A stretch of DNA of 63,500 nt from an uncultured Desulfobacteraceae bacterium. GTDB lineage: Bacteria; Desulfobacterota; Desulfobacteria; Desulfobacterales; UBA11574. The notes below the pieces were generated by a model. That model saw only the letters and a list, made by a program, of their open reading frames with translations. It ran no database searches and was not told where the DNA came from. The translations under genes and the position numbers were made by a program. Where the stretch lies: NCBI GenBank assembly GCA_964410925.1, contig CAYPIW010000051.1:1-63500 (forward strand), read 5' to 3'. This document shows, piece after piece, positions 44,556-63,335 of the stretch (position 1 is the first letter of the stretch; each line of letters opens with the position of its first letter).

Positions 44556-44603
44556 GGTAACTTTTCCCCTAAATTCCGGTTTTAAAGATTTCTGCTTTTC
44601 TAA

Positions 44604-44809: not shown

Positions 44810-44828
44810 TCTATATTTGAGCGGGCCC

Positions 44829-46199: not shown

Positions 46200-46261
46200 G
46201 ATATCCCTCGTTTCTGAATTTGGAACTGTATTTGTACCCGATATATATTTATGGATGGAAA

Positions 46262-48268
46262 CTAACTAATATCCAATATTACTTTAAACTTACTCCCCAC
46301 CCCTAATTTGCTTTCAACTTGAATACGTCCCCCTATTTTCTCAATGAGATTATGGACAATGTACATTCCGAGCCCGGTTCCTTTCTGTAATGGGTTGGTC
46401 GTGAAAAAAGGATCAAATATTTTTTCTAATGTGTTTTCATCCATCCCTCTGCCATTGTCACTGACCTGAATGATCAGTTGATTTTTTTTTGAATCATCCA
46501 TGAAAACCACCAGGTCGACTCGCGAATCTTTATCAAGCGGTGTGTCGAAGGCATTAGCGGCATTGATCAGAAGATTAATTAAAATCTGCTCCAGAAGTTG
46601 TGAATCCACAGGAATCTCCGGCAGGGTTTCCGGAATATTCACATCAAAGGTTTTTACGGTTTTTCGAATTTTGCTCCAGCAAAACGCAAAAATTTTTTCA
46701 AACATGGGTTTCAGGTCAATTTTTTCTATTGGCCTGTCCGGGTCCGGTTTTGAAAATACTTTTAAGTTCTTAACAATGGATTTAATTTGCCTGGAACCAT
46801 GTTGGATATTATCTAAAAGTTCAAAAATATCCTCACGAAATTCAGGGTAAGGCATGTGCAATATTCTCAGATCCGGATGCTTTTCAGCATATTCATCAAG
46901 TATCGGTATCACCCTGTTAATATAATCCCTTAAGATCGGAATATTGACGGAAATATAATTATTCGGATTGTTGATCTCATGGGCGATCCCTGATACCAGA
47001 ACCCCGATGGAGGCCAGCTTTTCACTCTGTATGAGCTGCTTTTCCATGCGCTTTTCTTCGGTAATATCCTGGATGCGAATGATGGTGGCTTCAATGTTGC
47101 CGCTATTATTTATTATCGGGTATAATGAAACCTCTTCGAATTGTTCGGAGTTTACTAGACTTCGGCGCTGAAACTTCTGCTCCTTCCCCTCTGATACTGC
47201 CCCGGGGATTGTGCATCCATTACATATTTCGCTTTGGTTGCTCAATCCCGCAAAACAGGGTTTTCCGATGAGCTGATCAGGATTTTTTATCGTATAATAA
47301 TCCAGCGCAGGCCGATTAACAGCATGAACGGTAAGCCCTTCTCCCAGGAGGATCAGCGGATCTGAGATCCCGTCAAAGATCGATTGGAGCATGGCCTTGC
47401 TTTTTCGGAGTTCATCTTTCGTACGTTCGAATTCAGTGATATCCTGTATCGTGCCAATCATCTGAATCGGTCTGCCGGTTTCATCAAAAATCACTTCAGC
47501 CTGTTCGTGAACAATGCGTTCCCTGCCGTCCGATAGAATGATACGATGGTCGATTCGGTATGGCCTGTTCTCATATAAAGCTTCATCAACAGATCGAATA
47601 ACAAAATCTCTGTCTTCCGGATGTACGAAACTCAGAAATCTGTCATAAGTGACCTCGAATTCTTGAGGTACCCGCCCGAAAATTCGATATATCTCATCGG
47701 ACCAATCCAGCTCGTTGGTCACTATATTCCACGTCCAGTTTCCCAAGTGGGCGATGCGCTCAACCTGCGCAAGGCGTCCCGCACTTCGCTTCAGTTTCAT
47801 CTCCGCCAAATTGCGCTCAGTCACATCTTCAAATGTCAAAAAAATCAGCGGTATGTTGTTCGCCTCTCCGGATATGCGTCGGGCATTCAGTCGCATCATC
47901 CGCCGGCCGATATGTTCAAACTCATGTTCAACATCATAGCCGTCCAAAGAAGTATCCATGTAAAGGATATGCTCAATCAGTTTTCGCAGTTTGGGGATAT
48001 CCCATTGTCCATTGCCCAGATCATATAATAATTTCCCAACGGTTTCTCGGGGGGTTACCTTAAAAACCTGATAAAAAGATCTATTCGCAAATATCGCCTT
48101 CAACTTAGCGTCCAGCACCAGCAAGGGTTCGCGAACTATGGCCACGATGGGTTCAGCATGTTCGCGAATTTCTTTGGTGCTTCTTTCTAACGGGCTGATG
48201 CGACTGACCTGTTTTTCCAAATTCTTGAGTTTTTGTACCAATTCTTCATATGTTGGTTTATTGGCCAT
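46262..48268 (-). CDS. Cytoplasmic multi-PAS sensor histidine kinase
   Basis: MANKPTYEEL start, three PAS domains, IAHEINNP H-box, DNGRG, FDPFFTT, GTGLG. Confidence 0.92.
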   Translation of the reverse strand: MANKPTYEELVQKLKNLEKQVSRISPLERSTKEIREHAEPIVAIVREPLLVLDAKLKAIFANRSFYQVFKVTPRETVGKLLYDLGNGQWDIPKLRKLIEHILYMDTSLDGYDVEHEFEHIGRRMMRLNARRISGEANNIPLIFLTFEDVTERNLAEMKLKRSAGRLAQVERIAHLGNWTWNIVTNELDWSDEIYRIFGRVPQEFEVTYDRFLSFVHPEDRDFVIRSVDEALYENRPYRIDHRIILSDGRERIVHEQAEVIFDETGRPIQMIGTIQDITEFERTKDELRKSKAMLQSIFDGISDPLILLGEGLTVHAVNRPALDYYTIKNPDQLIGKPCFAGLSNQSEICNGCTIPGAVSEGKEQKFQRRSLVNSEQFEEVSLYPIINNSGNIEATIIRIQDITEEKRMEKQLIQSEKLASIGVLVSGIAHEINNPNNYISVNIPILRDYINRVIPILDEYAEKHPDLRILHMPYPEFREDIFELLDNIQHGSRQIKSIVKNLKVFSKPDPDRPIEKIDLKPMFEKIFAFCWSKIRKTVKTFDVNIPETLPEIPVDSQLLEQILINLLINAANAFDTPLDKDSRVDLVVFMDDSKKNQLIIQVSDNGRGMDENTLEKIFDPFFTTNPLQKGTGLGMYIVHNLIEKIGGRIQVESKLGVGSKFKVILDIS

Positions 48269-48700
48269 TAAAACTTTTCCAAACGCTCCGAAAAAATAAA
48301 GGCTCATACACTCTTGTTCAAACCAAAAAAGGTGTATGTGCCTTAATGAGTTACATCGGGATGACTCTCCAAGTTAGGTTACCGTATAGATACTGTTTCA
48401 GGATGGATTCATTTTTTTCAAAACCTCTAATGATATTTTTGAGATGCATCTAATATCATGGCAGGGCCGAAACTGCAAATATTTTTATGGACAAAGGTTC
48501 GTGCGTTTGACCCGGTTGGAAAAGAGGTTTTTTTTATCGGGCAAAAAGTGTCTATTTGACGAATCAAATGGAATTTCAATTGGTTATTCATTGTCTTTAA
48601 TTTTCCGGACAGAAGAAGCAAAACCCGTGGAGACACAATGAAACGCACTTGTCTTATGACAGATATAAGATTTATAACCACAAGTGCCCAGATTTCGGTA

Positions 48701-49525
48701 TCACTCGCACTGATCCAGAGCGCGAACCAGCATTCGCATATGGCTTTTTTCGGCCTGGGCAATGGATAAAAAGCTGTCCCGGACAGTCTGATCATTTTCT
48801 TGCTCGGCCATGGTTTTGTACAGATCAAAGGCGGCATATTCCATATGAATGGCCAGTTCTAAAATTCGAAGACACGGGTTTTCTTCAATATTTTTAACGT
48901 ATTCCATCACCTCCACCAGGCTTTCCCCACCTTCAAGGATTTCTCCTTTAAGACTTTCGTAGAGTTGGTCAAAGGCCATGGGAATGCTTGCCGCTTTTTC
49001 CCAGAACCCGTAAACGGTTCTGGCATGTGCGATTTCCGCCCTGGACAACTGCTCCAGGGTAGGAATAATCGGATCGACTGCAAAGTTTTTTAGAATATTA
49101 GTATAAAATCGCCAGGCCCCTTTTTCCAGGTCCATGGCGGTAAGCAAAAGTTCCACAGGCCCTTTGGTTTTATCAAAGACCTGTATTTTGGGAAATCCTT
49201 TCAGGGTCTTGCCTTCCCAGGACAGGATCCCTCCTTCCAGATTGTGTATGGTTTTTTCACTAATACCTTCCTCAGAAAACATGGATGCCGCCGCCAGAGA
49301 TCGACCTCCACTGTGGCAGTAGAAAATAACATCCCTGTTTGCAGGCAAACCGGAAAAATCGGATATAAGTTTATTCAAAGGAATAAACTTAGCTCCGGGA
49401 AGGTGGCCTTTTCTGTATTCATCCGGCTGCCGGACATCCACAACCAGGTATTCCTTTTCATTGTGGGATTTGATAAATTGCTTCAATTCTTCAGCCGTAA
49501 TGTCTTTAAATCCCGAATCGAACAT
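48701..49525 (-). CDS. Rhodanese domain fused to a ferritin/rubrerythrin-like domain
   Basis: DVRQPDEY..HLPGA, YCHSGGRS; E..ExxH pairs (AEIAH, AEKSH); start MFDSG with a GAGGAG RBS. Confidence 0.88.
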   Translation of the reverse strand: MFDSGFKDITAEELKQFIKSHNEKEYLVVDVRQPDEYRKGHLPGAKFIPLNKLISDFSGLPANRDVIFYCHSGGRSLAAASMFSEEGISEKTIHNLEGGILSWEGKTLKGFPKIQVFDKTKGPVELLLTAMDLEKGAWRFYTNILKNFAVDPIIPTLEQLSRAEIAHARTVYGFWEKAASIPMAFDQLYESLKGEILEGGESLVEVMEYVKNIEENPCLRILELAIHMEYAAFDLYKTMAEQENDQTVRDSFLSIAQAEKSHMRMLVRALDQCE

Positions 49526-49529
49526 TTTT

Positions 49530-50885
49530 TTATCTCCTCTCAGATACCCCTTTACTGCGGTCATACCATCGTGCAATAACCTTCGGGGCAATACCCATAA
49601 CATACGATATAATCACCAGCTGGTTGATTAACGTGGTTTTTAATATGCCGAAGTTTTGCCAGCGGCGGGATGATGTGAAAACAGGCACGGGCAGAGTTAC
49701 TATATTTCCTTGTTTTCTCAAGCGTCTGACCAGTTCAAAATCTTCCATTATCGGAATATCCGGAAATCCTCCGATCTCTCGAAAAACTTTGGATGAAATG
49801 AAAATCGCCTGGTCACCGTAAGGCATTTTTAAATATCGGGATCGCCAGTTTGCAAGGTATTCAATAAGCCGAAGGCCCGGCACCGTGGAATCCATACCAA
49901 GTTCGAATGCGCCGGCAATCATTTTGAGGTGTTTGAAGCCGTTAAAAATAAGGTCTTCAAATCTTTCGGGCAACCGTGTATCGGCATGAAGAAAAACGAG
50001 TACTTCACCCGTGGCTTGATCGGCGCCCCGGTTCATTTGCCGTGCCCGAGGCGGTGCGCTGGCAATAACTCTTGCCCCCAGTGATTTCGCAATCCCAACG
50101 GTATCGTCATTACTTCCCCCATCCACCACAATGACTTCCTTTTTGTTCCCGGTACCGATACTTTTTATGGTATTTGCAATATAATCCGCTTCGTTTATGG
50201 CCGGTATGATAATTGAGATGCGATTGGGTTTAAAAACACCAGGGGGTGTATGTTGGGACCGTTCCCGGATCATAAGATCCTCAGGGTGGTCCAGATCTTG
50301 TAACACGTCCAACAGAGCATAATTCAATCGCGAATGTTTTGCAATTGTTATTGTTTTTTTGAGAACATCACCTGATCCCCAGGTTATACCGCGAAACAAA
50401 TCAGGGATAGTCTGTGATAAAGAATTTTTTTGCAGCCCAATTAAATAATAGCCGCCGTCTTTGGCCGGACCCAGCACCATGTTTTTTTGTTGAAGGGCCT
50501 CAAACGCTTTTTGAATGATACCATTTGTCATATCCGGGATATCGCTGCCTATAATCACAGCCGTGGTCGCCCCGGCTCCAAAGGCATCTTCCAAAGAACA
50601 TTTCATGCGCTGTCCAAGATCGCCACTGCTCTGGGGGCGATACTCAAAATTCCGGCCGAGCCAGGTTCGCATTCGATTTTTATCCCCGCCCTCATAACGG
50701 ATCTCAACGCTCAATTCACGCCGTACTGATAACCTTTTTACCTGTGACAGGGTGTGTTCCGTCATTTTGCGCTGAAGATCCGCAGCCCCTTCCGCCCCTA
50801 ACAGGGGAATAAGCCGGGTCTTGGTTTTTCCCGGTTCCGGATAGCGGGTGAAGACAATCAAATGTTCTTTAAAGTGTATTGACAT
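49530..50885 (-). CDS. Fused TIGR04282 + TIGR04283 glycosyltransferases (rSAM/selenodomain- or arsenosugar-associated)
   Basis: N-half FTRYPEPGKTKTRL, GDLGQRM, IGSDIP, LGPAKDGGYYLIG; C-half ISIIIPA, VDGGS, RARQMNRGA, FLHADT, PYGDQ, MEDFE, TSSRRW. Confidence 0.88.
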   Translation of the reverse strand: MSIHFKEHLIVFTRYPEPGKTKTRLIPLLGAEGAADLQRKMTEHTLSQVKRLSVRRELSVEIRYEGGDKNRMRTWLGRNFEYRPQSSGDLGQRMKCSLEDAFGAGATTAVIIGSDIPDMTNGIIQKAFEALQQKNMVLGPAKDGGYYLIGLQKNSLSQTIPDLFRGITWGSGDVLKKTITIAKHSRLNYALLDVLQDLDHPEDLMIRERSQHTPPGVFKPNRISIIIPAINEADYIANTIKSIGTGNKKEVIVVDGGSNDDTVGIAKSLGARVIASAPPRARQMNRGADQATGEVLVFLHADTRLPERFEDLIFNGFKHLKMIAGAFELGMDSTVPGLRLIEYLANWRSRYLKMPYGDQAIFISSKVFREIGGFPDIPIMEDFELVRRLRKQGNIVTLPVPVFTSSRRWQNFGILKTTLINQLVIISYVMGIAPKVIARWYDRSKGVSERR

Positions 50886-51074
50886 ATTCCGTCCCAAAAT
50901 TTGTTGTACCGGTTTGTTCTTCGAAATGATTCCTCGGTTAATCTTATCCCCCTGTTCTCCTGTCGCGGGTAAAATACAAAATCCTTGACCAGTCATCTCA
51001 TTTTAGTTAATTTTTTCTTAGTTTTCAAGATAGTTTGCGTTAATATTTATAATCCTGTCCCGAATCGTATCGTC

Positions 51075-51357
51075 CATCACTGTTTTCCAATACTTGTTTA
51101 ATTGATGTTCAATATTAACATGAGCTGTTCATATATTAAACAGGTCTAATGTCCAGTTGTTAAACAACTTCACGGTTGGATAACAACAAAGATTTTGAAT
51201 CCGACCTTAAATCATAGGCTGTTTTATCCATCAACCGGCAACCGGTAACGGGCAGCCAGCACCCGATCTTAATTGGCATAATTATTGCTGTTCTAATAAA
51301 ACAATTGAGTTTTAAATCCACAGGACTCAAACGGACAGGAGGGTTACAATGATATAA
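51075..51357 (+). promoter_or_regulatory. Sigma54 promoter cassette, copy C
   Basis: TTGGCATAATTATTGCT at 51273-51289; palindromic sites at 51106, 51126 and 51150. Confidence 0.8.
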
Positions 51358-51774
51358 ATCGGGCAGGGCGGCGGGTGTGTTGTGCAGAATTTTTTGAGCA
51401 CAGATGTGGTAATGCCTTTAAAGAGGATGGGGGCTCACCTTCGGCCTTGCCTTAAATGAAAGGAGGTGAGAGAGAAATGAAAAATTAGTCTATATCTTTG
51501 TACTCGTAAGGTTAATGTTGTAGTAATCTTTTGCACAATATCTGAGGCAGACTGTTTGACAGTCACAGATTGTAGCAATTCATGCCTTTTAGGTCATGCC
51601 TTTCAGGTGCACAAAGGAGAATTAAAATTCTAAGAATTTTAAACAATCAGACAATAGCAGTTGCTAAGGTGTTGACTATAACATTTACCCGGCAGTGAAA
51701 ATTTAAATAACATATTGTGGCGTAATGATTGTGTCACAAGCTCAAAGAAAGACAATTTGTCAGGAGGTAAAAAG

Positions 51775-52444: not shown

Positions 52445-52612
52445 CTACTTAAGCAGGGTGGCACAATATGCCGCACCGATAAGGGCTGCTTTATCGTTCA
52501 GAATGACGTTAACGGGTATATTCTCAAGCAACTCCTTAAACCTTCCTTTATTCGTCAAAGCGGCTTCAGTGATGCTTTTTGCCGGGTCCACTTCTCTGAT
52601 CCTTTCCTTCAT
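52445..52612 (-). pseudogene. glk: Glucokinase C-terminal remnant, internally deleted and 5'-truncated
   Basis: Manual translation MKERIREVDPAKSITEAAL-TNKGRFKELLENIPVNVILNDKAALIGAAYCATLLK*. KGRF..L..IPV..I....AL.GAA is the Glk C-terminal signature. Confidence 0.75.
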
Positions 52613-52733
52613 TTTTTAAGCGAAAGCCTTGCAATCAGGTGTCAGCTGTCAGGTGTCAGGAGGAAGAAACGAATTAGCTGATACCTGAAACCAAAAAGTC
52701 CTGGATAGCAATTAACAAACTGGTAATGCACCC
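52608..52733. mobile_element. MITE family A, copy 3 (left TIR missing)
   Basis: TTCATTTTTTAAGCGAAAGCCTTGCAATCAGG.. through the right TIR TTAACAAACTGGTAATGCACCC. Confidence 0.8.
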
Positions 52734-52957
52734 ATATTTTGCTCTTCCATTCTCTATAGAAATACTTTAAAATGCTTTAAGCAAATTGCAAAAAAAGAAT
52801 GGTAGTTTTCTGAGCATGAATGCCAAAAGAAAGACCCAGATTAAAGATTTGCTGTTACACATCATAATTGTATTATCCTCCAATCCGTGGAGCGAAGAAA
52901 ACGATGGCCGACAAAAACCTGCCGGCTAAATTCCGATAATCTCTGGAGGGAACCATC

Positions 52958-55303
52958 TTGCCGTTTGAGGTTATAATACTGCTCACGATTGTTGCCGCGG
53001 CATTCGTCCTGTTTATCGGTGGCTGGCTGCGTGTGGATGTGGTTGGACTGCTGGTGCTGTCGGCCCTTGCATTGACGAATTTGGTCACTGCGCAAGAGGC
53101 TTTGGCCGGCTTCAGCAGCCCTGCAGTGGTCACCGTGTGGGCTTTGTTTATCCTGTCCGCGGGACTGACCCGCACCGGTATTGCCCATCAGCTCGGACAG
53201 CCGTTGCAGCGCTTCGCAAAAAGCAGCGAAGCCACGCTCATGGTTGCTTTGATGCTTGCCGCCAGTCTGCTGTCGGCGCTCATTAACACCGTGACCGTCG
53301 CAGCCATTCTACTGCCGACGACGATGGAGCTGGCCCGGCGCAGCGGGCGCCCACCCTCCCGGCTTCTTATGCCGCTGGCGCTCGGTTGCCTCCTCGGCGG
53401 TCCATTCACCGGCATCTCAACTCCACCCAACATCCTGGTGACCGATTTAGTCCGCAACGCAGGCTTGCCCCCCTTCGCCCTTTTCGACTTCACGCCCATA
53501 ACCGCAGCCATCGTTGTGGCCGGTATCGCCTTCATGGTGCTCGTCGGCCGTCGCCTGCTCCCCAGCCGCACCGCGGGGGTGGACACAGACAACCGTTTGG
53601 CACTTGGAGCTTCCTACCAGCTCGACACGCACATCTTCACCACCCGCATCCCATCGGAATCGCCGCTTGACGGCCGCACACTCGCCGAGAGCCGGCTCGG
53701 CTCAGCGCTTTATATGACTGTGCTGGCGCTCCAGCGAAAGGGTGGGTTGATACTCGCTCCCCGTCCAAATGACGTCCTTCAGTCAGGAGACACGCTCATC
53801 GCACACGGTAGTCCCTACCACTTGCAGCGCTATTATGCCAGCCAGCACCTCCAGATCGAGTCGCCCGACCAAGTCCAGAATCTGCTCCCCAAATATCTGC
53901 AAGTGGCTGAGGGACTTGTCACCGAGGGTTCGCCGCTGCTTGGCTCCACGCTTGCGGAGAGCGGCTTGCGGCGGGAGCATCGCGTTCATGTGCTGGCACT
54001 CTACCATCCAGCCGGAGGCGAGGTTAAGGATCTGCGACGGCATCAGTTTTCAACTGGAGAGAGACTGCTGCTGCAGGGAGAACGGGCAGATCTGGAAGAG
54101 TTGTCACGCCTGGGCTTTGTCACGGAACTGCGCTTCGTAGCGGCGGATAAGCTGAAGGCACTTGCCGGTGACCGTAACGAACTGCTGTCGGTACGCGTTC
54201 CACTGGGATCGGTGCTGGCCGAGCATAACCTGGTCGAAAGTCGCTTGGGGAATGCATTCGGTTTGACCGTCATAGGACTTGTACGTGGTGAAAAACTGCT
54301 GTGCATGCCTTCGCCGGATGAAAAGGTGCAGGCCGGTGATCTGCTTGTGCTGCAGGGTTCGCCTCGTGATCTCGAGGTTCTCGAAGGTCTCCAGGATCTG
54401 GAGATCGCAGAGCAATCCTCCAGCCTGGTTGCCGAACTGGAATCACAACAAATCGGCGTAACGGAAGTTCTGCTTTCACCCAGGACGACCCTTGCAGGAC
54501 AATCTCTTGCCGATCTGCTTTTCCGCGAGCGGTATGGCATCAGCGTGCTCGCCATCTGGAGAAGGGGCCGTGCCTATCGCACCGGGCTTCAGGACATGCC
54601 TTTGCAGTTCGGCGATGCTCTGCTGGTTTACGGACAACGCCGCAACCTGGAGGCCCTGGCTCGCGATTCCGACTTTCTCGTGCTGGATGAGTCAGTGGTG
54701 CGGGCGCCGCGCCTGGAGAAGGCTCGCATGGCCGTTGCCATCATGCTGGCGGTCATTTTGAGCGCTATCCTCGGCCTTGTTCCGATTGCCATTGCCGCCC
54801 TTACCGGAGCAGCGCTGATGGTACTCGTCGGATGCTTGAGCATGGAGGAAGCCTACCGGGCCATTGAGTGGAAGGTCGTGTTTGTTATCGCCAGCATGCT
54901 GCCGCTGGGAGCTGCCATCGAAAACACGGGAGCTGCGCAGATGGGCGCAGCTGCCTTGATCGCTGCGGTCGGTGATCTCGGCCCTCGCTGGGTTGTTGCG
55001 GCGCTCTTTATCGTGACCGTGCTCGGCACGCAAATCATTCCTACGGCTGCTCTGGTGGTGTTGATGGCTCCGGTGGCACTCAGCGCTGCCAGCATTTTGG
55101 GAATCTCGCCGCATTTGCTGATGATGACCGTGGCAATTTCGGCATCATCGAGCTTTGCCAGCCCGCTGTCGCATCCTGCACATCTACTTGTCATGGGCCC
55201 CGGCGGCTATCGCTTCATCGACTACGTGAAAGTCGGCGTGCCCATCACAATTATCTCGCTACTCGTGTCGGTGGGGCTGCTGCCCATCCTGTGGCCACCC
55301 TAA
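52958..55303 (+). CDS. SLC13/CitMHS-type permease with four TrkA-C (RCK_C) domains
   Basis: LRVDVVG, GFSSPAV, STPPNIL, four (S/T)xLxG(T/S)L..R repeats, EEAYRAIEW, GPGGYRFIDYVKVG; visibly GC-richer than the flanks. Confidence 0.9.
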   Translation: MPFEVIILLTIVAAAFVLFIGGWLRVDVVGLLVLSALALTNLVTAQEALAGFSSPAVVTVWALFILSAGLTRTGIAHQLGQPLQRFAKSSEATLMVALMLAASLLSALINTVTVAAILLPTTMELARRSGRPPSRLLMPLALGCLLGGPFTGISTPPNILVTDLVRNAGLPPFALFDFTPITAAIVVAGIAFMVLVGRRLLPSRTAGVDTDNRLALGASYQLDTHIFTTRIPSESPLDGRTLAESRLGSALYMTVLALQRKGGLILAPRPNDVLQSGDTLIAHGSPYHLQRYYASQHLQIESPDQVQNLLPKYLQVAEGLVTEGSPLLGSTLAESGLRREHRVHVLALYHPAGGEVKDLRRHQFSTGERLLLQGERADLEELSRLGFVTELRFVAADKLKALAGDRNELLSVRVPLGSVLAEHNLVESRLGNAFGLTVIGLVRGEKLLCMPSPDEKVQAGDLLVLQGSPRDLEVLEGLQDLEIAEQSSSLVAELESQQIGVTEVLLSPRTTLAGQSLADLLFRERYGISVLAIWRRGRAYRTGLQDMPLQFGDALLVYGQRRNLEALARDSDFLVLDESVVRAPRLEKARMAVAIMLAVILSAILGLVPIAIAALTGAALMVLVGCLSMEEAYRAIEWKVVFVIASMLPLGAAIENTGAAQMGAAALIAAVGDLGPRWVVAALFIVTVLGTQIIPTAALVVLMAPVALSAASILGISPHLLMMTVAISASSSFASPLSHPAHLLVMGPGGYRFIDYVKVGVPITIISLLVSVGLLPILWPP

Positions 55304-55395
55304 GGATAAATGGTGTCCCTTCACAAACGACTTCTGGACCCTGATTAGTTTCCAGGCCAGAAATAAGGATTTTTTGTCATGAACCAGGATATCAA

Positions 55396-56556
55396 TCAGT
55401 TTGCTGAAAAACCCGATGACCATTTGTCTTGGTACCAATTGGCAATATCAGATGCTCGAGCGAATAAATACACCCCGATGAAGGCGGTGATCAAAATATA
55501 GACACCGCTGAAAATCCGCAACTGCGGCAGGGCCATGCCGGCGATGATGGCGGAGAACTCGCCGCGGTGCACCATTGAAAATGCGGCGCGACAGGCGACT
55601 TTCGGGCTCAATCCAAACCAGCGACTGCCGGCGTAGGCCGTGACGACCTTGCCCACAACCGCCAGAATGACAAGGGCGATCATCAAGCCAACGAAAGGAA
55701 TACCTTCACCGAACTGGAGGGTTGTTCCAAACCAGAAGAAAAAAAACGGCAGGGTAATATCTCGAACAGGCAGCAGCAGGCGTTCGATTTCGGTGGATCT
55801 TCCGGTTTCTGACAGCATGACGCCGGCCATAAACGCGCCCAGGATTTCAGATAAACCCATGGCTATGGCGAGGCCGGCGTAGGCCAGTGCCAAACCTGCC
55901 GCCAGAAGCGGCATGAAATCGTTTTCGATGTATCTTGCGATGAAATGCTTCATTTGTTTAAAGCCGTAATGTCCCATAAGGATGGCTCCTGCCATCAGAA
56001 CCACGATTTTAAAAGATAAAATTCCCATAAACGTCATGGAAAGCGCTTTCCCGCCGTAAATGCCGGCAATGAAAGAGACCAGGATGGGAGCCACCAGGTC
56101 TTCAAAAATGAGCAGCGCCAGGATAAACTCTGCTTCGGGATTTGCCAGACGTTTTTTTTCTTCCAGCATTTTGGCAGATATGGATGAACTTGTGGCATAG
56201 GTAACCGACCCGATGATGAACGCGGTTACAATGTCGAGGCCGAAAAGCATGGTGACGGTCATGGCGCCGCCCAGATTGACGGCAACATCGAGAAATCCGG
56301 CAGGCCAGACTCTTTTGGATATGGTAATCATCCGGGCCAGCGGAAATTCGAGCCCCAAAATAAAAAACAGCAAAACAATGCCGATTTCGGCCACGATATG
56401 AATCAATTCATTTTTAAAAAATAAGGAGGAAACCAAGGCGCCCAGCACGATATAAATCAAAACCGACGGAAGCCTGAATTTTTGTGAGGCAAAGCTGATG
56501 GCAAAAAATGTGCAGAGCATCAGCCCGGCTATCAGCAGAAAGGGTAGATTTTGCAT
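55396..56556 (-). CDS. khtU: CPA2 K+/H+ antiporter membrane subunit (KhtU/YhaU-like)
   Basis: LLFFILGLEF, TSSSISAK, LIFEDL, LGAFMAG, RGEFS; no C-terminal RCK domain; follows khtT. Confidence 0.82.
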   Translation of the reverse strand: MQNLPFLLIAGLMLCTFFAISFASQKFRLPSVLIYIVLGALVSSLFFKNELIHIVAEIGIVLLFFILGLEFPLARMITISKRVWPAGFLDVAVNLGGAMTVTMLFGLDIVTAFIIGSVTYATSSSISAKMLEEKKRLANPEAEFILALLIFEDLVAPILVSFIAGIYGGKALSMTFMGILSFKIVVLMAGAILMGHYGFKQMKHFIARYIENDFMPLLAAGLALAYAGLAIAMGLSEILGAFMAGVMLSETGRSTEIERLLLPVRDITLPFFFFWFGTTLQFGEGIPFVGLMIALVILAVVGKVVTAYAGSRWFGLSPKVACRAAFSMVHRGEFSAIIAGMALPQLRIFSGVYILITAFIGVYLFARASDIANWYQDKWSSGFSAN

Positions 56557-56568
56557 GCCTTAATATTC

Positions 56569-57099
56569 CTATGGATTCTCATTATGGTTCGGATCAACAT
56601 CATAGGTTGTCAGGGTGCATGATTTGCACAGAGATTCCAGTCTCTTGGTCTGTTCCCGATTGCCGATGACCATGAGAACATCACCAGGCAGGATGACCTC
56701 GTTAACATCCGGACTGCCGATCATTTTTTCGCCTCTCTGCACTCCGATGATGGTTACTCCGGTCTTGGTCCTGATTTGGGAGTCGATGATTTTTTTATTG
56801 GCGAGTTCACTGTCCGGCAAAATGTTGAGCCATTCGATCCGGATGTTTTTCAACAGCAGTTCCACCCGGTCATCGGCTACGGGCTGGTAATCGGCACCGA
56901 GAAGAATGGTCCCTAACTGGCGAGCCTCTTCATCGGTCAATTTTATCGTAAAATCCGGTTCGTCCTCATCGGATTTGGGAAAATGGTATAACTCCCGGTA
57001 TCCGCTGTGATGCAAAATAGTTACAAAATTGTCCCCTTCCGCCGTTATAAAGGAATAGCGTTTCCCAATTCCCGGCAGGTCGCTGGTTTTAATTTTCAT
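56569..57099 (-). CDS. khtT: K+/H+ antiporter regulatory subunit (KhtT/YhaT-like, RCK_C)
   Basis: TSDLPGIGKRY, LTDEEARQLG N-domain; IRTKTGVTIIGVQR..SP..GDVL RCK_C. Confidence 0.88.
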   Translation of the reverse strand: MKIKTSDLPGIGKRYSFITAEGDNFVTILHHSGYRELYHFPKSDEDEPDFTIKLTDEEARQLGTILLGADYQPVADDRVELLLKNIRIEWLNILPDSELANKKIIDSQIRTKTGVTIIGVQRGEKMIGSPDVNEVILPGDVLMVIGNREQTKRLESLCKSCTLTTYDVDPNHNENP

Positions 57100-57154
57100 T
57101 TTCGCCTCCGTGGTCGGCCTTCACCGATTTTTTTTTCAAACACGTTCTTAAAGG

Positions 57155-58147
57155 TTATGGGTCCGCCCCGATACTCCCGCCAACGGCGTCCTTGCCTTTT
57201 GACTTAATATCAAACATGGCGCGATCCGCCTGAGCGAGCAGTCCGGTCATATCAATGGCATCATCCGGACAGGTAGAAACACCATAGCTTGCCTTCAGAC
57301 GGACCTGGTGTCCTCTATTAACCAAATAGAGCGTTCCCTTCATTCTGGTTCGAATTTCCTCTGCTTTTTGCATGGCCTGTTTTTTATTAAACTCCGGAAG
57401 CACAACCACAAACTCATCACCGCCATAGGCCACGCCATAAGCCGGCTTGGCAATAGATTCCCGGATGGTTGCAGACACTTCGGCCAAGGCTTGACTGCCG
57501 TTAAGGTGGCCGTATTTATCCACTACCTGCTTGAAGTTGTCTATGTCTAAAAAGATAAGCGAAAAAGGATTGCCGTCCGCCGCGCTGGCAGTGATGAGAT
57601 CACTCAAAGACTGGTAAAGATAACGGGTATTTTTAAGGCCGGTCAGATTGTCGTGGACGGCCAGATAACGAAACTTCTCCTCACTTTTTCTAAGATCCTC
57701 CTCGACCTGCATGCGTTCGGCGATTTCATCCTTTAGCTGCTGATTTACTTTTTTTAATTCTTCTCTTGAACGAAATAATTCCAGATGCGTCTTAACCCTG
57801 GCCAACAATTCGGCCCCATGAAAAGGTTTGGTTACATAGTCCATGGCGCCCACTTCAAATCCTTTGACAATACTTTCAGAAAGATTTTTTGCTGTGAGAA
57901 AAATAAGAGGAATATTCCTGGTGGCAGAATTTTTTCTTAATTGCTCACAAACAGCGAATCCATCCATGTCCGGCATCATTACATCGAGCAGAATGAGGTC
58001 GAACCGGTTGGATTGGGCCTGGGAAAGGGCTGATTTGCCGTTTTGGGCAAATGCCATCTGATAACCTTCTTTTTGCAGGATATTTGCGGCCAACTGGATG
58101 TTTTTGGGAATGTCGTCCACAATTAATATTTTAAACTTTGTTTTCAT
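57155..58147 (-). CDS. REC-GGDEF dinucleotide cyclase with non-canonical base-specificity residues (Hypr-like)
   Basis: Intact REC (IVDD, LLDVMMP, LTAK, KPF), then DNLTGLKNTRY, DIDNFKQVVDKYGHLNGS, AYGGDEF; no RxxD I-site. Confidence 0.9.
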   Translation of the reverse strand: MKTKFKILIVDDIPKNIQLAANILQKEGYQMAFAQNGKSALSQAQSNRFDLILLDVMMPDMDGFAVCEQLRKNSATRNIPLIFLTAKNLSESIVKGFEVGAMDYVTKPFHGAELLARVKTHLELFRSREELKKVNQQLKDEIAERMQVEEDLRKSEEKFRYLAVHDNLTGLKNTRYLYQSLSDLITASAADGNPFSLIFLDIDNFKQVVDKYGHLNGSQALAEVSATIRESIAKPAYGVAYGGDEFVVVLPEFNKKQAMQKAEEIRTRMKGTLYLVNRGHQVRLKASYGVSTCPDDAIDMTGLLAQADRAMFDIKSKGKDAVGGSIGADP

Positions 58148-60441
58148 TGTCCATGTCCGTCTGCCTTTTTCTCTCCATGAAGTAATAATCTTATTCTTTC
58201 GATTAATTCAGGATAGGAGTCTAAAGTGACATTCATATTTTCTACGTCAAAATGACTGACCTGAGTACTTAACTCATCTCCGAATCTCTTAAGAACCTCC
58301 AATGAATATTTTTCGCCCAATTCTTTCATCTGATGCCCGAACGCTGCGATATCATCAAAAAAAAGGTTTTTACGAGTCGATTCCCATAATTTCATATATT
58401 CGTTATCAAGGGTATCAATAACACCGGGCAGCTGTTCGATAACTTCAGGCGACAGCCTCACAACTTCTTGTGTTTTTTCATTTCTTTCCTTTTTTGAATA
58501 TTTAATAAACCGACTGACTTCCCGAAATAATTCTGACTGTTGTATGGGTTTGCTCAAGAACCCGTGAAAACCGCTGCGCAGGATTTGTTCTTTCTCTTCT
58601 TTCATTCCGAAAGCGGTTAAAGCGATGATGGGAATAGTCATTGTTTCCGCATCTCTGCGGATTAGTTTTGCTGCTTCATGTCCATCCATGCCCGGGAGTC
58701 TTATGTCCATTAAAATGATATCGGGCCTGTGCTCTTTGGCAAGAAGGATTGCTTTTTCACCATCTTCTGCTTCGATAATAGTGATATTTGTTTGCCAAAA
58801 ATATTCTTTTATTAATTCCCGGTTGATTTCAATATCATCCACAACCAAAATGAGCGACTTTTCAAAAATGATATCTTCACTGTCAAAAATGTCCTCTATT
58901 TCGGATTTAGCTTCTTCAGGGGCAATAGGTACATGAGGAAGAATTATTTCAAAGCGAGTGCCCTTATTCTCCTCACTTTGAAGAGAAATATATCCGCCCA
59001 TTATTTCAACCAATCGTTTTGTGATTGCCAGACCCAATCCAGTACCGCCGTATCGTTTGGTACTTTGACCATATCCCTGTTTGAAAGCCTCAAATATTTC
59101 ATCCCGGGATTCGGAAGGAATGCCGATCCCGGTATCCTCCAAAGCGATAATCAGATCCAAATGGTGCTGATCTTTTTTTATATCTTTTTTTTTGGCACTG
59201 ACCTTTATATATCCTTTTTCTGTAAACTTTATTGCATTGTCGATCAGGTTAAATAATATTTGCCTCAAACGCAATTCATCCAAAATTAAGTTTTTAGGAA
59301 TATCCTGAGCAATATCTACAATAAAATCAAGATCTTTTTCTAGTGCCGTCAAGGAAAAAATATGTTTGATTTCATTAAAAAATGAGTAAGGATCAACAGG
59401 CTCGCATTGAAGTTCTATCTTTCTGGCCTCAATTTTCGATAGATCGAGAATACTATTAATCAGCGTCAACAAACTTTTACCGCTGGATTGAATCGATTCA
59501 AGATAATTTTTCTGCCTTTTATCCGTGATCAAAGAATTGAGTAAGTCAGCGAAACCTAACACAGTATTCAAGGGGGTACGAATCTCATGGGACATGTTGG
59601 CCAGAAACTCGCTCTTTGCACGGTTCGCAGATTCAGCGGAATCTTTGGCCGCAAGCAATTCCTTGTTAACCTGATGAAGTTCGGCGGTACGAAGGGTTAC
59701 CTGTTCTTCCAGGTGCTCTCTATTCTGCTTCAGCTCATTATCGCGAGACTGAATCCGGGCCAACATCTCATTGAAACCGTCAATAAGGATTCCAATTTCA
59801 TCCTGGCTGTGCTTTTCTGCCCGGACGGAGAAATCTTTTTCTTTTGAAATGGTTCTGGCGGTTTCCGTCAAGCTCAAAATCGGCTCGGAAATAACGCGCT
59901 GGAGCCAGGATGACAATATCCAGGCGATAAAAAAAGCAACCAATACAATAACAGCAAAGATAGCGGCGGACTGTATCATTTCAATATTCATCCTGCTCAA
60001 ATCATATTGAATGCAGACTGTCCCGATAATATCATTTTCAAAAAGGATTTTTTGAAACATAAACAAATAATTCCCCTCATAGTAGTGGCCTTCTTTCTGA
60101 AGATCAGGGGGAACCATTTCTTTGTCAGCGTCCTGGCGATGATATGTGGCAAAGACTTTCCCGTTATTATCATAAATACAGGCAAAGAAGATATCCGGTT
60201 TGGCGCGCAGTGCTGCCAGATTCTTCTCAGCCGTTCGTTTATCAAAGAAAACCAGCGCTCCCTCACTATTTAGCCCGATCACCTGCGCTAAACTGGAAAG
60301 ATCATGGCGCAGGGCTTTCCGAGATGTGGTGACATCTTTAAAAATAAAGGCTATGGAAGCAAACAGTATGGTAATACCGCTGGTGAGCATAATAATTGTT
60401 TTTAGCTTCCATTTAATGGAAAGGTTTTGGAAGGCGCCCAT
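58144..60441 (-). CDS. Hybrid sensor kinase: TM-CHASE8-TM-HAMP-HisKA-HATPase-REC plus helical tail
   Basis: GLNSEGALVFFD periplasmic domain, DEIGILIDGFNEML HAMP, FLANMSHEIRTPL, DTGIGI, GGTGLG, LMDIRLP. Confidence 0.92.
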   Translation of the reverse strand: MGAFQNLSIKWKLKTIIMLTSGITILFASIAFIFKDVTTSRKALRHDLSSLAQVIGLNSEGALVFFDKRTAEKNLAALRAKPDIFFACIYDNNGKVFATYHRQDADKEMVPPDLQKEGHYYEGNYLFMFQKILFENDIIGTVCIQYDLSRMNIEMIQSAAIFAVIVLVAFFIAWILSSWLQRVISEPILSLTETARTISKEKDFSVRAEKHSQDEIGILIDGFNEMLARIQSRDNELKQNREHLEEQVTLRTAELHQVNKELLAAKDSAESANRAKSEFLANMSHEIRTPLNTVLGFADLLNSLITDKRQKNYLESIQSSGKSLLTLINSILDLSKIEARKIELQCEPVDPYSFFNEIKHIFSLTALEKDLDFIVDIAQDIPKNLILDELRLRQILFNLIDNAIKFTEKGYIKVSAKKKDIKKDQHHLDLIIALEDTGIGIPSESRDEIFEAFKQGYGQSTKRYGGTGLGLAITKRLVEIMGGYISLQSEENKGTRFEIILPHVPIAPEEAKSEIEDIFDSEDIIFEKSLILVVDDIEINRELIKEYFWQTNITIIEAEDGEKAILLAKEHRPDIILMDIRLPGMDGHEAAKLIRRDAETMTIPIIALTAFGMKEEKEQILRSGFHGFLSKPIQQSELFREVSRFIKYSKKERNEKTQEVVRLSPEVIEQLPGVIDTLDNEYMKLWESTRKNLFFDDIAAFGHQMKELGEKYSLEVLKRFGDELSTQVSHFDVENMNVTLDSYPELIERIRLLLHGEKKADGHGQ

Positions 60442-60442
60442 C

Positions 60443-61039
60443 TTATTCCTGTCCTCCTTTAACAATTTCAGCTGACATAAGAATTTGTGAGCTTAATTTC
60501 AATCCCGCCTTCCTGGCGGCATCGACGTTGACTTCAAAACGGAGCCGTTTTTGTTCCATAAAAAAATTGATGATTCCCCCCATTTGAGCAAAGCCGTCTA
60601 TTTCTCCCACGGTTAATATGTTTCGATTTTTTAAATCAATTAATTTTTGCTGAATGAATGCCTTGTCCTCTGTTCCAAAGAAAAAAATGTTACACCCTTC
60701 GGTGCCATGGTCATCTTCATATTTTCTTACTTCTATTTTTTTTCCGCTGACGATCTTATCGTTAAGGTCAAAAAGAATATCGCTTAAAGGATTATTCGAG
60801 GCAAAACAGAGGACAATAACGTTATTGTTATTCACAAACGCGTCGGGCGGCCACTCAACAAATTTTGCAAAATTATAAATAAAGCCGGCCTTAACGTGAT
60901 ATTCCAAACCGGAAAGAGTTTCCGTGTGGGCGTATTTAGCGACGAGCATCATCAGGCAACACACGATCATGGCGACGTGTCGGCCGATATTTCCCCCCGC
61001 TTTAGTTTTTTGAAGCCTGTCTTTCATGCAGCATTTCAT
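60443..61039 (-). CDS. yfiR: YfiR family (DUF4154) periplasmic protein
   Basis: EYHVKAGFIYNFAKFVEWP, LTVGE, GGIINF, RFEVN, GLKLSSQIL. Confidence 0.88.
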   Translation of the reverse strand: MKCCMKDRLQKTKAGGNIGRHVAMIVCCLMMLVAKYAHTETLSGLEYHVKAGFIYNFAKFVEWPPDAFVNNNNVIVLCFASNNPLSDILFDLNDKIVSGKKIEVRKYEDDHGTEGCNIFFFGTEDKAFIQQKLIDLKNRNILTVGEIDGFAQMGGIINFFMEQKRLRFEVNVDAARKAGLKLSSQILMSAEIVKGGQE

Positions 61040-63118
61040 TCAGAAACTCCACACCAGTTTTCCATAAACACTGCGCTCGATTTCAAGGGAAGAATACTCG
61101 GAGTGTCCCTTCTCAAAAAGATTCTGTCCCACAATCGAAAGTTCTATATTTTGGATGGGCCTCCATGCCAGTCGAGCATCTAAAGTTGTATAATCGTCAA
61201 CATTTATTTCAGAGAGGCGGCCGACATAGCGAAGCCACAAGTCGAAATCGATCTGTTTTGTTATATCGAACAAGGAGCGTACGGAAAATTGATTTCGGGG
61301 ATTGCTTCTCATAAAGAAATATTCTGAGAAATCATTGGCTCCGGTATCGTCTCCGTGTATTTTAGCATGCAGGTAAGTATAAGACGCCATCAGACGCCAC
61401 TGCCGAATAACCTGCCAGTCCGCCGCCATCTCGAGTCCGTAGGCTTCACCGGTTAAATTGTTGTCGTATGTTAGCGGGATGATATAGTGTGGAAGGGGGT
61501 CGTTTACCAAATACGGATCACCTGATTTAAGTCCGATTACCTTATCATAATCATTATAAAATATAGTCGTATTCAACCACAGGGAGTTCATTGGCTGTAC
61601 ACGGTAACCGAGTTCATAGGCGATGAGTTCTTCCGAAGCCAAATTATTGTTACCAAGGGTGACGATTACCTCCGGATCACGACTAGGGTCTCGAATCACC
61701 ACAGCTTCATTGGTCCTCACGTCGTTTTCGAGTCGGGAAGGCATTCTCACGGCCCGTGATATCGCCCCCCAGAGGGCATGTCGCCTTTCAGGAGTATATA
61801 AAATCCTGAGACTGGGCTGAACCTCAAGACCGGTGAAATCATTATGCTCGAACTTCGATCCAACGATCAGGGTTAACCGATCCGGCGTAAGTTGTATTTC
61901 ATCCTGGACAAACACACTGAACAGGTCCTGATTAAGACGATCCGGATCCATTTCGATTTCAAAGCTATCGTCGAACTTGTCCGAAATGAACCGATATCCC
62001 AGCCCCCAGACAACATCATGTTGCTCAAACAGGTTGAAGCGATGCTGAAAATCAAGGTCAAAGGTATTTACGCGACCACTGCTCGGATCATAATCTTTCT
62101 CGGCATGATCATAATAAAATTGCAGGACAGTATCGGAGGTTGTGGAAATTTTATGCTGCCATCGGCCCAGCAGGTGCCCACCGAAAGCCTTGGAAGTATC
62201 CCTTTCCAGAATGGAAAAGGGCGGTGTGAGGGACACGCGATCAATCTTCGTCTTATACTCGTTTTTATAGGCCTCACCTTGCAATGTAAGGGAATTCGTC
62301 GGATCCATTGCGGGTAATTTTCCCGGCTCCCAGTCGATTCGAAATCCACCGCGACCCGATTGCCAGTCACTGGTCGGCTGGACATCCGTATCATCCTCAA
62401 CGATTCCGGCAAGCCGACCTCTGTTGAAGTACTTTACATAGGTCCGATAATGTATCTCCTCACCTGAGGCGCCTCCGTATCGAATGCTTCCGATTCCTTC
62501 TTCATCTCCACCCAGAGCGCTGATTTGCCATCCCTGGGTCTTCTTTGCTTGTTTGGTAATGATGTTAATGACCCCGTTTACGGCATTTACACCCCACAGG
62601 GTTGCCCCGGGCCCACGAATCACTTCGATACGGTCAATGTCTTCCAAAACCGTATCCTGCACATCCCAAAGCACGCCGGAAAAGACGGGCGTATAGACAC
62701 TGCGACCATCGATCAGCACGAGAAGATTGTTGGCGAATCGATCATTCAAGCCACGGATATTGATCGCCCAGTCAGTTGATGTGATTTGGGCCACATGAAC
62801 GCCCGGAGCCAGACGCAGTGCCTCGGGAATACTGGTGGCCCCGGATCGCCGGATGTCTTCTTGGGTAATCACAAAGACGGCCGCCGCCACCTCGGAAAGT
62901 TTTTCCGGCTTTTTCGAAACCGAGATAATTTCAATATTCTTGAGTTCTTCAAAAGTGAACCTGGTAAAATCGTGCAAAATGTTCCCTGCCGGATTTCCAT
63001 CTTTCCCATGACAATCCGGTACGCGTGGATCCATTGCCAATATACACATTAAAAGGACGGCACCCTTTAAGATCCGGGTCCATGGGACGGGAATGCGAAT
63101 CCTAACAATGTCTTTCAT
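61040..63118 (-). CDS. TonB-dependent receptor
   Basis: Plug domain SVSKKPE..AAVFVITQEDIRRSG, LIDGRSVY, RIEVIRGPGATLWG..GVINIIT; C-terminal WSF. Start uncertain (63118 or 63157). Confidence 0.93.
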   Translation of the reverse strand: MKDIVRIRIPVPWTRILKGAVLLMCILAMDPRVPDCHGKDGNPAGNILHDFTRFTFEELKNIEIISVSKKPEKLSEVAAAVFVITQEDIRRSGATSIPEALRLAPGVHVAQITSTDWAINIRGLNDRFANNLLVLIDGRSVYTPVFSGVLWDVQDTVLEDIDRIEVIRGPGATLWGVNAVNGVINIITKQAKKTQGWQISALGGDEEGIGSIRYGGASGEEIHYRTYVKYFNRGRLAGIVEDDTDVQPTSDWQSGRGGFRIDWEPGKLPAMDPTNSLTLQGEAYKNEYKTKIDRVSLTPPFSILERDTSKAFGGHLLGRWQHKISTTSDTVLQFYYDHAEKDYDPSSGRVNTFDLDFQHRFNLFEQHDVVWGLGYRFISDKFDDSFEIEMDPDRLNQDLFSVFVQDEIQLTPDRLTLIVGSKFEHNDFTGLEVQPSLRILYTPERRHALWGAISRAVRMPSRLENDVRTNEAVVIRDPSRDPEVIVTLGNNNLASEELIAYELGYRVQPMNSLWLNTTIFYNDYDKVIGLKSGDPYLVNDPLPHYIIPLTYDNNLTGEAYGLEMAADWQVIRQWRLMASYTYLHAKIHGDDTGANDFSEYFFMRSNPRNQFSVRSLFDITKQIDFDLWLRYVGRLSEINVDDYTTLDARLAWRPIQNIELSIVGQNLFEKGHSEYSSLEIERSVYGKLVWSF

Positions 63119-63335
63119 CTGTTTTTCCTTTTTTTTACCCGGAAATCTGCATACCAATATGTTATATATGCCTTAAAAGGTAAAGCCTGACTGCCCATTA
63201 AATTTCGCGCTTTTTCGATAATTATGTGTGAGCTGTGACAAACGACCGAACAATAGAGTTTGCAGGTGGGGTGATTAAAATTGCCCATAGTATGGCTTTA
63301 AAAAATATCCCATATTTATTCGTTCCCGTATACCT

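Follow-up and report, generated by a model that had tools for sequence, protein, structure and literature searches.

The window analysed here, a stretch of 63,500 nt (contig CAYPIW010000051.1 of assembly GCA_964410925.1; its own genome is called G000 below, and all coordinates are those of the window), appears likely to hold two independent modules that have come to lie side by side: a conserved envelope-sensing cassette (57155-63157) and an apparently acquired block of khtTU and an SLC13 permease gene (~52813-57131). The initial annotation had read across both, drawing six genes into a possible complete circuit from an outer-membrane receptor to potassium transport. Because the cassette adjoins the acquired khtTU in G000 only, this sensor-to-potassium circuit is probably an accident of neighbourhood and not a wired pathway. 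The features concerned are as follows.

61040-63157, minus strand: TonB-dependent receptor (TBDR), first gene of the cassette, with a Plug and a 22-strand-type barrel
60443-61039, minus strand: YfiR-like periplasmic protein (DUF4154; PF13689, E = 1.7e-42)
58144-60465, minus strand: hybrid sensor kinase, CHASE8-HAMP-HisKA-HATPase_c-REC by Pfam, plus a ~120-residue tail of unassigned fold
57155-58147, minus strand: REC-GGDEF response regulator by Pfam; its active site is Hypr-like (Thr/Val/Ser and GGDEF) and the RxxD I-site is missing
57100-57154, minus strand: 55-nt gap between cassette and khtT, carrying the GGAGG ribosome-binding site of khtT
56569-57099, minus strand: KhtT, K+/H+ antiporter regulatory subunit (KhtT N-domain and RCK_C; PF02080; match to PDB 7agv)
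55396-56556, minus strand: KhtU-like CPA2 cation/proton antiporter membrane subunit (PF00999, Na_H_Exchanger, E = 9.4e-48)
52958-55303, plus strand: SLC13/CitMHS-type permease (59.9% GC) whose central loop holds four TrkA_C (RCK_C) domains
~52813-57131: 4.3-kb block of SLC13, khtU and khtT, likely acquired and absent among the matches listed for five same-genus genomes
52608-52735: ~127-bp dispersed repeat bordering the block on its left

The six minus-strand genes are co-directional, with gaps of 0, 1, -4, 55 and 12 nt in the open reading frame list at the starts chosen in the initial annotation, and a consensus scan of the minus strand detected no terminator-like site in the five intergenic gaps and nothing promoter-like from 57100 to 58100, confirming the arrangement as first described. 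The lack of either kind of site before khtT fits a single-operon view for the G000 strain. The TBDR probably starts at the ATG at 63118, codon 14 of the longest frame, and the kinase at the ATG at 60441. Pfam backs the original domain assignments of the TonB receptor (PF07715 and PF00593), YfiR, CHASE8 kinase, cyclase, KhtT and KhtU, and it resolves the convergent SLC13 permease, singled out earlier for its four RCK_C domains, into CitMHS and four TrkA_C stretches.

The first three cassette genes are adjacent, and their products all exceed the curated cut-offs of a triad of NCBIfam models: NF053590 (TOL_0244 family) for the TBDR, at 678.2 bits (cut-off 645); NF053591 (TOL_0243 family) for the YfiR-like protein, at 129.4 against 125; and NF053592 ('sensor histidine kinase, YfiR-like protein-associated', HK_near_YfiR_like) for the kinase, at 241.7 against 194. 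These models supply names without function, and the fourth gene, that of the Hypr-like cyclase, lies outside them. Against the specific YfiR equivalog NF053586 the YfiR-like protein scores 42.7 bits, below the cut-off of 85. An HPt domain was looked for in the ~120-residue C-terminal tail of the kinase, and none was detected. The closest relative, the same-genus genome G014, carries the series TBDR-YfiR-HK-REC-GGDEF, and its DNA is 87.7% identical to window 63131-57132 across 6003 nt. In the order's 20 best-scoring NF053592 loci, G000 and G014 excluded, the TBDR, YfiR and kinase genes are adjacent, and in that order, without exception (20/20), and a same-strand downstream GGDEF gene with Thr/Val/Ser follows in 15; the other five comprise one locus whose contig ends past the kinase and four with no GGDEF match over the signature positions. 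At three loci (L019, L023 and L026) the genes downstream of the GGDEF gene are different each time. The initial proposal that YfiR-like protein, CHASE8 kinase and REC-GGDEF form one unit is upheld by this conservation in other genomes and, judged from gene order, the real unit is the four genes (TBDR, YfiR-like, CHASE8 hybrid kinase, REC-GGDEF), recurring across Desulfobacterales.

The cassette resembles YfiBNR (TpbB/DgcN) of Pseudomonas and E. coli, described in PMC4655355 and PMC8085984 as an envelope-stress c-di-GMP system: in both, the gene for a YfiR-family periplasmic protein adjoins that for a CHASE8-HAMP membrane sensor, and a GGDEF cyclase is the output. However, YfiN combines CHASE8, HAMP and GGDEF in one protein, whereas in the window YfiN is in effect split into a hybrid kinase and a separate REC-GGDEF; at the outer membrane a TonB-dependent receptor takes the place of the OmpA/Pal-like lipoprotein YfiB; and the gene order differs, being outer-membrane protein, YfiR, sensor in the window. 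From the parallel with YfiBNR, the most likely role of the YfiR-like protein is to restrain the CHASE8 domain of the kinase, and it would be freed or captured via the outer-membrane partner. The kinase would then phosphorylate the REC-GGDEF, which would dimerise and make a cyclic dinucleotide.

The cyclase had been called atypical from the outset, and alignment to PleD and to GacA (6d9m) bears this out. Its GGDEF domain (PF00990, E = 1.6e-35; YGGDEF present) taken alone has GacA as its best solved match (6d9m, 102.8 bits versus 90.1 for PleD). It has Ser at the PleD Asp344/GacA Ser348 position, on the Watson-Crick face (gap-free alignments to PleD and 6d9m), Thr at the position of the cross-dimer Arg/GacA Tyr304, Val at the PleD Asn335/GacA Asn339 position, and GGDEF, not GGEEF; the numbering was checked by the spacings 304/339/348/374. 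As set out in PMC6456294 (sections 12 and 13), the cross-dimer Arg occurs in 94% of diguanylate cyclases, with Tyr, Ser, Ala or Gln in its place in Hypr enzymes; Asn339 of GacA makes a sugar-face hydrogen bond to the base; and by a 'Goldilocks' rule (section 12) Ser/Thr348 pairs with GGDE[F/Y], never with GGEEF. By these residues the window cyclase has the Hypr (GacA-type) active-site signature, except that Val stands in for Asn339. It shares with Geobacter GacA, a GMP-AMP cyclase of the Hypr type (product 3',3'-cGAMP) described in the same source, the REC-GGDEF architecture, Ser348, Asp374 of GGDEF and a non-Arg residue at 304, as well as the GHLxGSQ and K..GK context. Apart from the Val, it differs from GacA in missing the I-site RxxD (REVD in GacA, 6d9m alignment) and in having its gene at the output end of a TBDR-YfiR-CHASE8 kinase cassette; its cyclic product is predicted from residues.

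An adenine-containing product is plausible on these grounds, and because the clade of this cyclase has a Hypr/GacA-like active site, cGAMP, or a mixture including adenine-containing dinucleotides, is more likely than pure c-di-GMP. It could still be that the enzyme is an ordinary diguanylate cyclase, its Val, Ser and Thr leaving the product unchanged and the cassette acting as a two-component YfiBNR that raises c-di-GMP on envelope stress, although we consider this unlikely. The full set of catalytic GGDEF residues is present, with the motif's D, E and F, like the Asp residues of DxD, invariant across the clade alignment; a PleD-family NCBIfam model matches at 263 bits, though below its cut-off of 474; two GEMM-I-class riboswitches lie upstream of surface-protein genes in the genome; and PMC6456294 (sections 12 and 13) describes a canonical GGDEF enzyme that, in one D-to-S mutant, remained a pure diguanylate cyclase, and states that Hypr enzymes with the cross-dimer Arg yield more c-di-GMP. 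The clade members scored, however, argue otherwise. Val and Ser occur together in 76 of the 78 scoreable loci among the best 80 of at least 567 confirmed relatives' loci, and all 76 of these pair Ser with GGDEF (51) or AGDEF (25) and never with GGEEF, as in the Ser/Thr348 rule of PMC6456294; the other two, the weakest, have Asn/Asp with GGEE[F/C]. Thr replaces the cross-dimer Arg in all 15 cassette GGDEFs. The missing RxxD I-site and the Val in place of a guanine-contacting Asn likewise speak against an ordinary diguanylate cyclase.

DNA homology with the G014 cassette stops at 57132, in a run of nine A within the 55-nt gap; five same-genus genomes match the window over 40007-51060 and from 57132 onward, and 52813-57131 has no match in them among the best 150 of 238 matches listed. 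GC3 is 67% in SLC13, 59% in khtU and 57% in khtT against 41-51% in the cassette genes, and the GC of SLC13 falls in the top 0.3% of the genome's 2-kb windows. The repeat at the left edge is present in 50-70 copies in G000 and in dozens in same-genus genomes. The block is likely a recent acquisition, and its distribution and composition, as opposed to a rooted tree, suggest gain in G000 and not loss elsewhere. Insertion would have left khtT with ~30 nt of its own leader and a ribosome-binding site (GGAGG, 9 nt upstream of the ATG); the 55-nt gap folds no better than shuffles (z = 0.84). Since this leader has no recognisable promoter or terminator, khtTU may be transcribed by read-through from the cassette in the G000 strain, which would amount to transcriptional coupling, not nucleotide coupling.

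Neighbourhood surveys, made by tblastn and with an RCK_C profile built here on contigs of which many are short, found the proposed link of the cyclase/kinase cassette to KhtTU and SLC13 to be absent from related genomes. KhtT or KhtU was found beside none of the best 80 (of at least 567) GGDEF-clade loci within <=10 kb, none of the 20 cassette loci and none of the first set of 11 loci compared, and 19 khtTU pairs from other genomes of the order all lack the cassette and a window-type GGDEF beside them. The initial annotation had also looked to co-occurrence with RCK_C genes; here the clade loci yielded one marginal match to the profile (E = 7e-4) and the cassette loci yielded none. Full-length KhtT is itself patchy, being found in 19 of 400 further genomes from the order, in none of 12 of the window's own family and in none of 40 other relatives searched (15 of them same genus); khtU directly follows khtT in all 19 relatives that have it. 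Of the six-gene proposal, then, the four-gene cassette and its atypical cyclase stand, whereas the connection to KhtTU and SLC13 is unsupported, being seen in G000 alone among the genomes and loci surveyed.

The khtT-khtU pair is predicted to encode a K+/H+ antiporter whose regulatory subunit carries RCK_C, and c-di-AMP is its likely ligand. KhtT aligns end to end with Bacillus subtilis KhtT (PDB 7agv, E = 1.6e-22, residues 2-154 on 5-158), and its Arg110 aligns with KtrC Arg169, the Arg used for c-di-AMP binding; KhtU scores 128 bits against TIGR00932, below the cut-off of 238. The likeness to B. subtilis KhtTU thus extends to the RCK_C Arg and to the conserved gene pair, but the window's host belongs to a Gram-negative sulfate-reducer lineage, in an order where the pair is patchy, and c-di-AMP is here a predicted ligand. 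It could be supplied by the genome's own cyclases: a check for DAC-domain genes, proposed initially, was positive for two, a CdaA-type CdaA_N-DAC-YbbR fusion and a DACND-DAC protein, and KhtT therefore needs no GGDEF-made ligand.

These canonical DAC genes weigh against a single six-gene operon, with the REC-GGDEF activated by the kinase and its product, c-di-AMP or cGAMP, binding the RCK_C domain of KhtT, and perhaps those of SLC13, to gate K+ export. Such a circuit would suit the close co-directional packing of the genes, the lack of any terminator- or promoter-like site upstream of khtT, the Hypr-like active site, and a KhtT that is a full-length homologue, conserved Arg included, of the B. 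subtilis protein whose activation by c-di-AMP is reported in bioRxiv 10.64898/2026.03.23.713699. Cross-talk between cyclase and KhtT is chemically conceivable because a Hypr-type enzyme such as GacA can form some c-di-AMP in vitro (PMC6456294) and KhtT keeps the c-di-AMP Arg. Yet the linkage occurs in G000 only among the genomes and loci surveyed, synteny is broken within the 55-bp gap, the khtTU/SLC13 block is of foreign composition, our literature search found no RCK_C domain reported to bind cGAMP, and an Arg at the KhtT Arg110 position is present in only one of three alignable SLC13 RCK_C domains; we regard the circuit as very improbable. We would be similarly sceptical of a combination in which the insertion put khtTU under read-through from the envelope operon and the Val/Ser GGDEF, deprived of the guanine-contacting Asn, makes mainly c-di-AMP/cGAMP that also reaches the KhtT RCK_C domain. 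If true, this would make a GGDEF enzyme the ligand source of an RCK_C receptor and tie outer-membrane sensing to K+ export.

A chimeric assembly joining two organisms is a scarcely credible source of the adjacency: the record is a metagenome-assembled genome in 244 contigs, GC climbs from 0.40 to 0.60 across the region and the break falls in a run of A, but nine bases are too short a run for a graph mis-join, a separately built 595-nt contig from another DNA run (X3) crosses the junction (57021-57615) with 0 differences, and contigs from RNA libraries X8 and X10, identical save one letter, cover pieces on either side. The X3 sample is a different one, yet it belongs to a study that also includes one possible source sample, so X3 is not fully independent; because its contig bridges the junction, the latter is not an artefact of the G000 record alone.

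A circuit with synthase and receptor in one operon would have been the first of its kind, and the comparative evidence points against it. With two adjacent modules as the preferred reading, the interest shifts to the cassette, in which YfiR/CHASE8 envelope sensing appears to have been rebuilt as a phosphorelay of TBDR, kinase and REC-GGDEF, conserved in many Desulfobacterales, with a cyclase bearing Hypr-type residues as its dedicated output. Our literature search found no publication uniting GGDEF, cGAMP and Desulfobacter*, while the 2016 Hypr paper and papers' supplements, outside that search, may already list such sequences. The cyclase clade is large (at least 567 confirmed loci), and almost all the members scored combine the Hypr Ser with Val for the base-contacting Asn; if this clade makes cGAMP or c-di-AMP, GGDEF signalling by dinucleotides besides c-di-GMP would be commonplace among sulfate reducers and not limited to Geobacter, Myxococcus and Bdellovibrio.

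The window spans the complete contig C51 (63,500 nt) from a genome, here G000, of 3.93 Mb in 244 contigs at 44.8% GC, and carries the following genes:

61040-63157, minus strand, TonB-dependent receptor
60443-61039, minus strand, YfiR-like DUF4154 protein
58144-60465, minus strand, hybrid kinase (CHASE8-HAMP-HisKA-HATPase-REC)
57155-58147, minus strand, REC-GGDEF protein
56569-57099, minus strand, KhtT
55396-56556, minus strand, KhtU, CPA2 antiporter subunit
52958-55303, convergent on the six minus-strand genes, CitMHS/SLC13 permease with four TrkA_C stretches

The initial annotation read the six co-directional genes, with the permease next to them, as a possible single circuit leading from the envelope through an atypical cyclase to potassium transport. 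Open reading frames, domains and a site scan confirm the layout on which this reading was built, with intergenic gaps of 0, 1, -4, 55 and 12 nt (using the start codons of that annotation); none of the five contains anything terminator-like on the strand of the operon. Within the 55-nt gap a GGAGG precedes khtT and no significant fold was found, and no Rfam family matched anywhere in the window. The tail of the kinase, searched for an HPt domain, matched no Pfam family and had no PDB match below E = 0.027.

It is unlikely that the junction between the REC-GGDEF gene and khtT is an assembly chimera: an independently assembled 595-nt contig from another DNA run (X3; a different sample, taken in the study that also supplied one possible source sample) spans 57021-57615 with 0 differences. 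Contigs from two RNA libraries of one study (X8 and X10) differ from the window by a single letter at most and include parts of the SLC13, khtU, khtT, GGDEF and kinase genes; none spans 57100-57155, an absence that is uninformative on transcription because such contigs reveal neither transcripts nor their ends. In an independent study (X6), khtU and khtT are represented as far as 57101 by contigs 95-99% alike; these leave the upstream genes almost uncovered, a lack that carries no weight as evidence.

The conserved unit at this locus is four genes, from the receptor to the REC-GGDEF, and the part of the proposed circuit running from sensor to cyclase is supported. The receptor, YfiR-like and kinase proteins of this cassette all exceed the curated cut-offs of an existing NCBIfam set of models (TOL_0244 receptor, TOL_0243 YfiR-like protein and 'YfiR-like protein-associated' kinase). 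The kinase family is above cut-off in 58 of 401 genomes of the order. Among the 20 best matches to the kinase sensor in those genomes, with G000 and its closest same-genus counterpart (G014) left out, the order receptor-YfiR-kinase is identical in all 20 loci and a same-clade GGDEF gene follows on the same strand in 15; of the others, one reaches a contig end after the kinase, and in four no GGDEF match extends across the signature positions. The complete cassette of G014 is 87.7% identical to the window in DNA over 6003 nt, the alignment ending at 57132, where the 55-nt gap has a stretch of A. There the cassette is followed by a convergent CxxCxxCC-domain gene, whose G000 homolog lies on a different contig (C116), and the genes after the cassette GGDEF are different in each of three mapped loci. 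At one further locus (L056:7667-14612) a 512-residue Val/Ser AGDEF protein is encoded upstream, not downstream, of a receptor, a YfiR and a CHASE8 kinase that belongs to another cluster.

The other half of the circuit, in which the cyclase was linked to KhtT and the SLC13 permease, does not extend to related genomes, an outcome that the initial annotation itself took as refuting: the linkage of the cassette to khtTU is unique to G000 among the genomes and loci searched. A neighborhood survey of the GGDEF clade returned no match to KhtT or KhtU within 10 kb or less in any of 80 loci, and an RCK_C profile built for the analysis gave one marginal match (E = 7e-4) in the clade loci; an initial set of 11 loci likewise had no KhtT or KhtU match. 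No KhtT, KhtU or SLC13 match occurs in the 20 cassette loci, which also gave 0 matches to the RCK_C profile, and neither the cassette nor this GGDEF lies beside any of 19 khtT genes of other genomes. Five same-genus genomes align to window 40007-51060 at 82-97% identity, with only dispersed repeats beyond; the G014 alignment resumes from 57132, and 52813-57131 is left uncovered by all five among the best 150 of 238 matches. Composition also differs, GC3 being 67% in the SLC13 gene, 59% in khtU and 57% in khtT versus 41-51% in the cassette, and by GC the SLC13 gene ranks with the highest 0.3% of the 2-kb windows in G000. The SLC13-khtU-khtT segment is thus probably a separate, acquired block. 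Its left edge abuts a dispersed intergenic repeat of ~127 bp (52608-52735), with the SLC13 start ~220 bp downstream; the repeat is present in 50-70 copies in G000 at 74-89% identity, and several same-genus genomes each have dozens. A second repeat of ~300 bp (51034-51358) has further copies in the window at 16313-16588 and 19801-20125 (75-76% identity), and several contigs of related genomes also match it.

By alignment, the window KhtT is a genuine KhtT, residues 2-154 matching that of B. subtilis (7agv, E = 1.6e-22) with the family-specific N-domain included. Full-length KhtT occurs in 19 of 400 other genomes of the order (46-75% identity), in none of 12 genomes from the same family as G000 and in none of 40 other relatives searched, 15 of them same-genus. 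In all 19 khtU directly follows khtT, and khtT upstream regions elsewhere are long and non-coding; in G000 only ~30 nt separate the khtT ATG from the start of cassette homology. In three genomes of one family (f46; L128, L129 and L130) khtTU has within a few kb a further CPA2 gene together with an RCK_C protein and an SLC13-RCK permease 33-37% identical to that of the window, which suggests that khtTU with SLC13-RCK genes is a recurrent ion-transport cluster. Three of the four RCK_C domains of the window permease can be aligned to KhtT, and the Arg110 position is Arg in one and Gly in two.

KhtTU is activated by c-di-AMP, as a preprint describes (bioRxiv 10.64898/2026.03.23.713699), and a check of G000 for DAC-domain genes found two diadenylate cyclases:

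C172, L001:763-2187, minus strand, CdaA_N-DAC-YbbR fusion (CdaA with a CdaR-type partner domain)
C117, L002:1426-2013, minus strand, DACND-DAC protein

Because both are encoded, G000 would need no GGDEF for c-di-AMP synthesis, and KhtTU would most simply be a c-di-AMP-regulated K+/H+ antiporter supplied by CdaA. The genome also has two GEMM-I-class riboswitch aptamers (C233:2204-2280 and C58:15143-15257; L136 and L137), the first scoring best as a c-di-GMP-I-GGC variant (59.8 bits versus a gathering score of 59); the genes downstream encode a PEP-CTERM protein and a TPR/CsgG-like protein.

The description of the cyclase as atypical is upheld by alignment to PleD and 6d9m, which gives Hypr-like Thr/Val/Ser residues with GGDEF. 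The best solved match to the isolated domain is 6d9m, the Hypr GGDEF of GacA (102.8 bits versus 90.1 for PleD), and active-site positions were read from gap-free alignments to both, with spacings in GacA numbering (304/339/348/374) that agree with PMC6456294. The window cyclase shares Ser with GacA Ser348 (PleD Asp344) and has Asp, within GGDEF, at position 374, whereas it has Thr at the cross-dimer position (GacA Tyr304), Val in place of GacA Asn339 (PleD Asn335), and AKPA where GacA has the I-site RxxD. According to PMC6456294, the cross-dimer residue is Arg in 94% of diguanylate cyclases and its replacement moves the product toward cGAMP, Ser/Thr348 enzymes carry GGDE[F/Y] exclusively, and Asn339 touches the sugar face of the base.

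A pattern scan confirmed at least 567 relatives of this GGDEF. Residues were scored in the best 80 loci, 78 of them scoreable, and 76 have Val + Ser (51 with GGDEF, 25 with AGDEF and 0 with GGEEF); the two weakest have canonical Asn/Asp with GGEE[F/C]. The 25 AGDEF proteins (L041, L042, L048 and 22 others) group among the more distant members, at 50-60% identity. All 15 cassette-linked GGDEFs have Thr/Val/Ser, and N-terminal sensor domains vary across the clade. When neighbors of the 78 loci were clustered, no family apart from the cassette occurred in more than 7, so none stands out as a candidate for a general effector. G000 has four other GGDEF domains with canonical Asn/Asp, and a second of Ser/Thr type (C86:68965-69462) with Ser at the cross-dimer position, Val at the sugar-face position, Thr at the Watson-Crick position and GGDEY; two separate paralogs therefore pair Ser/Thr with Val in place of the Asn. 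With Hypr-like residues in the window cyclase and in most scored members of its clade, an adenine-containing product is a reasonable prediction from sequence, and loss of the Asn may relax guanine preference further.

YfiBNR is the model for a YfiR-repressed sensor (PMC4655355; PMC8085984), and the current classification places the YfiN periplasmic domain in CHASE8 (PMC8085984). By analogy, we hypothesize that the CHASE8 kinase is repressed by the YfiR-like protein and relieved through an outer-membrane partner, which is YfiB in YfiBNR whereas the cassette has a TonB-dependent receptor in that place. The kinase would then phosphorylate the REC-GGDEF, directly or via the kinase's REC domain and an HPt that escaped detection, and the REC-GGDEF would dimerize and make a dinucleotide, probably rich in cGAMP. 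Since insertion of the block left no recognizable promoter or terminator before khtT, read-through from the cassette into khtTU may occur in this strain; such coupling would be a by-product of rearrangement, not conserved design. A literature search, with the 2016 Hypr paper and all supplements outside its reach, returned no paper joining GGDEF, cGAMP and Desulfobacter*. What remains of interest is a conserved phosphorelay form of the YfiR system, the output of which is a member of a large Val/Ser branch among Hypr-type GGDEFs, one that has apparently not been described before.
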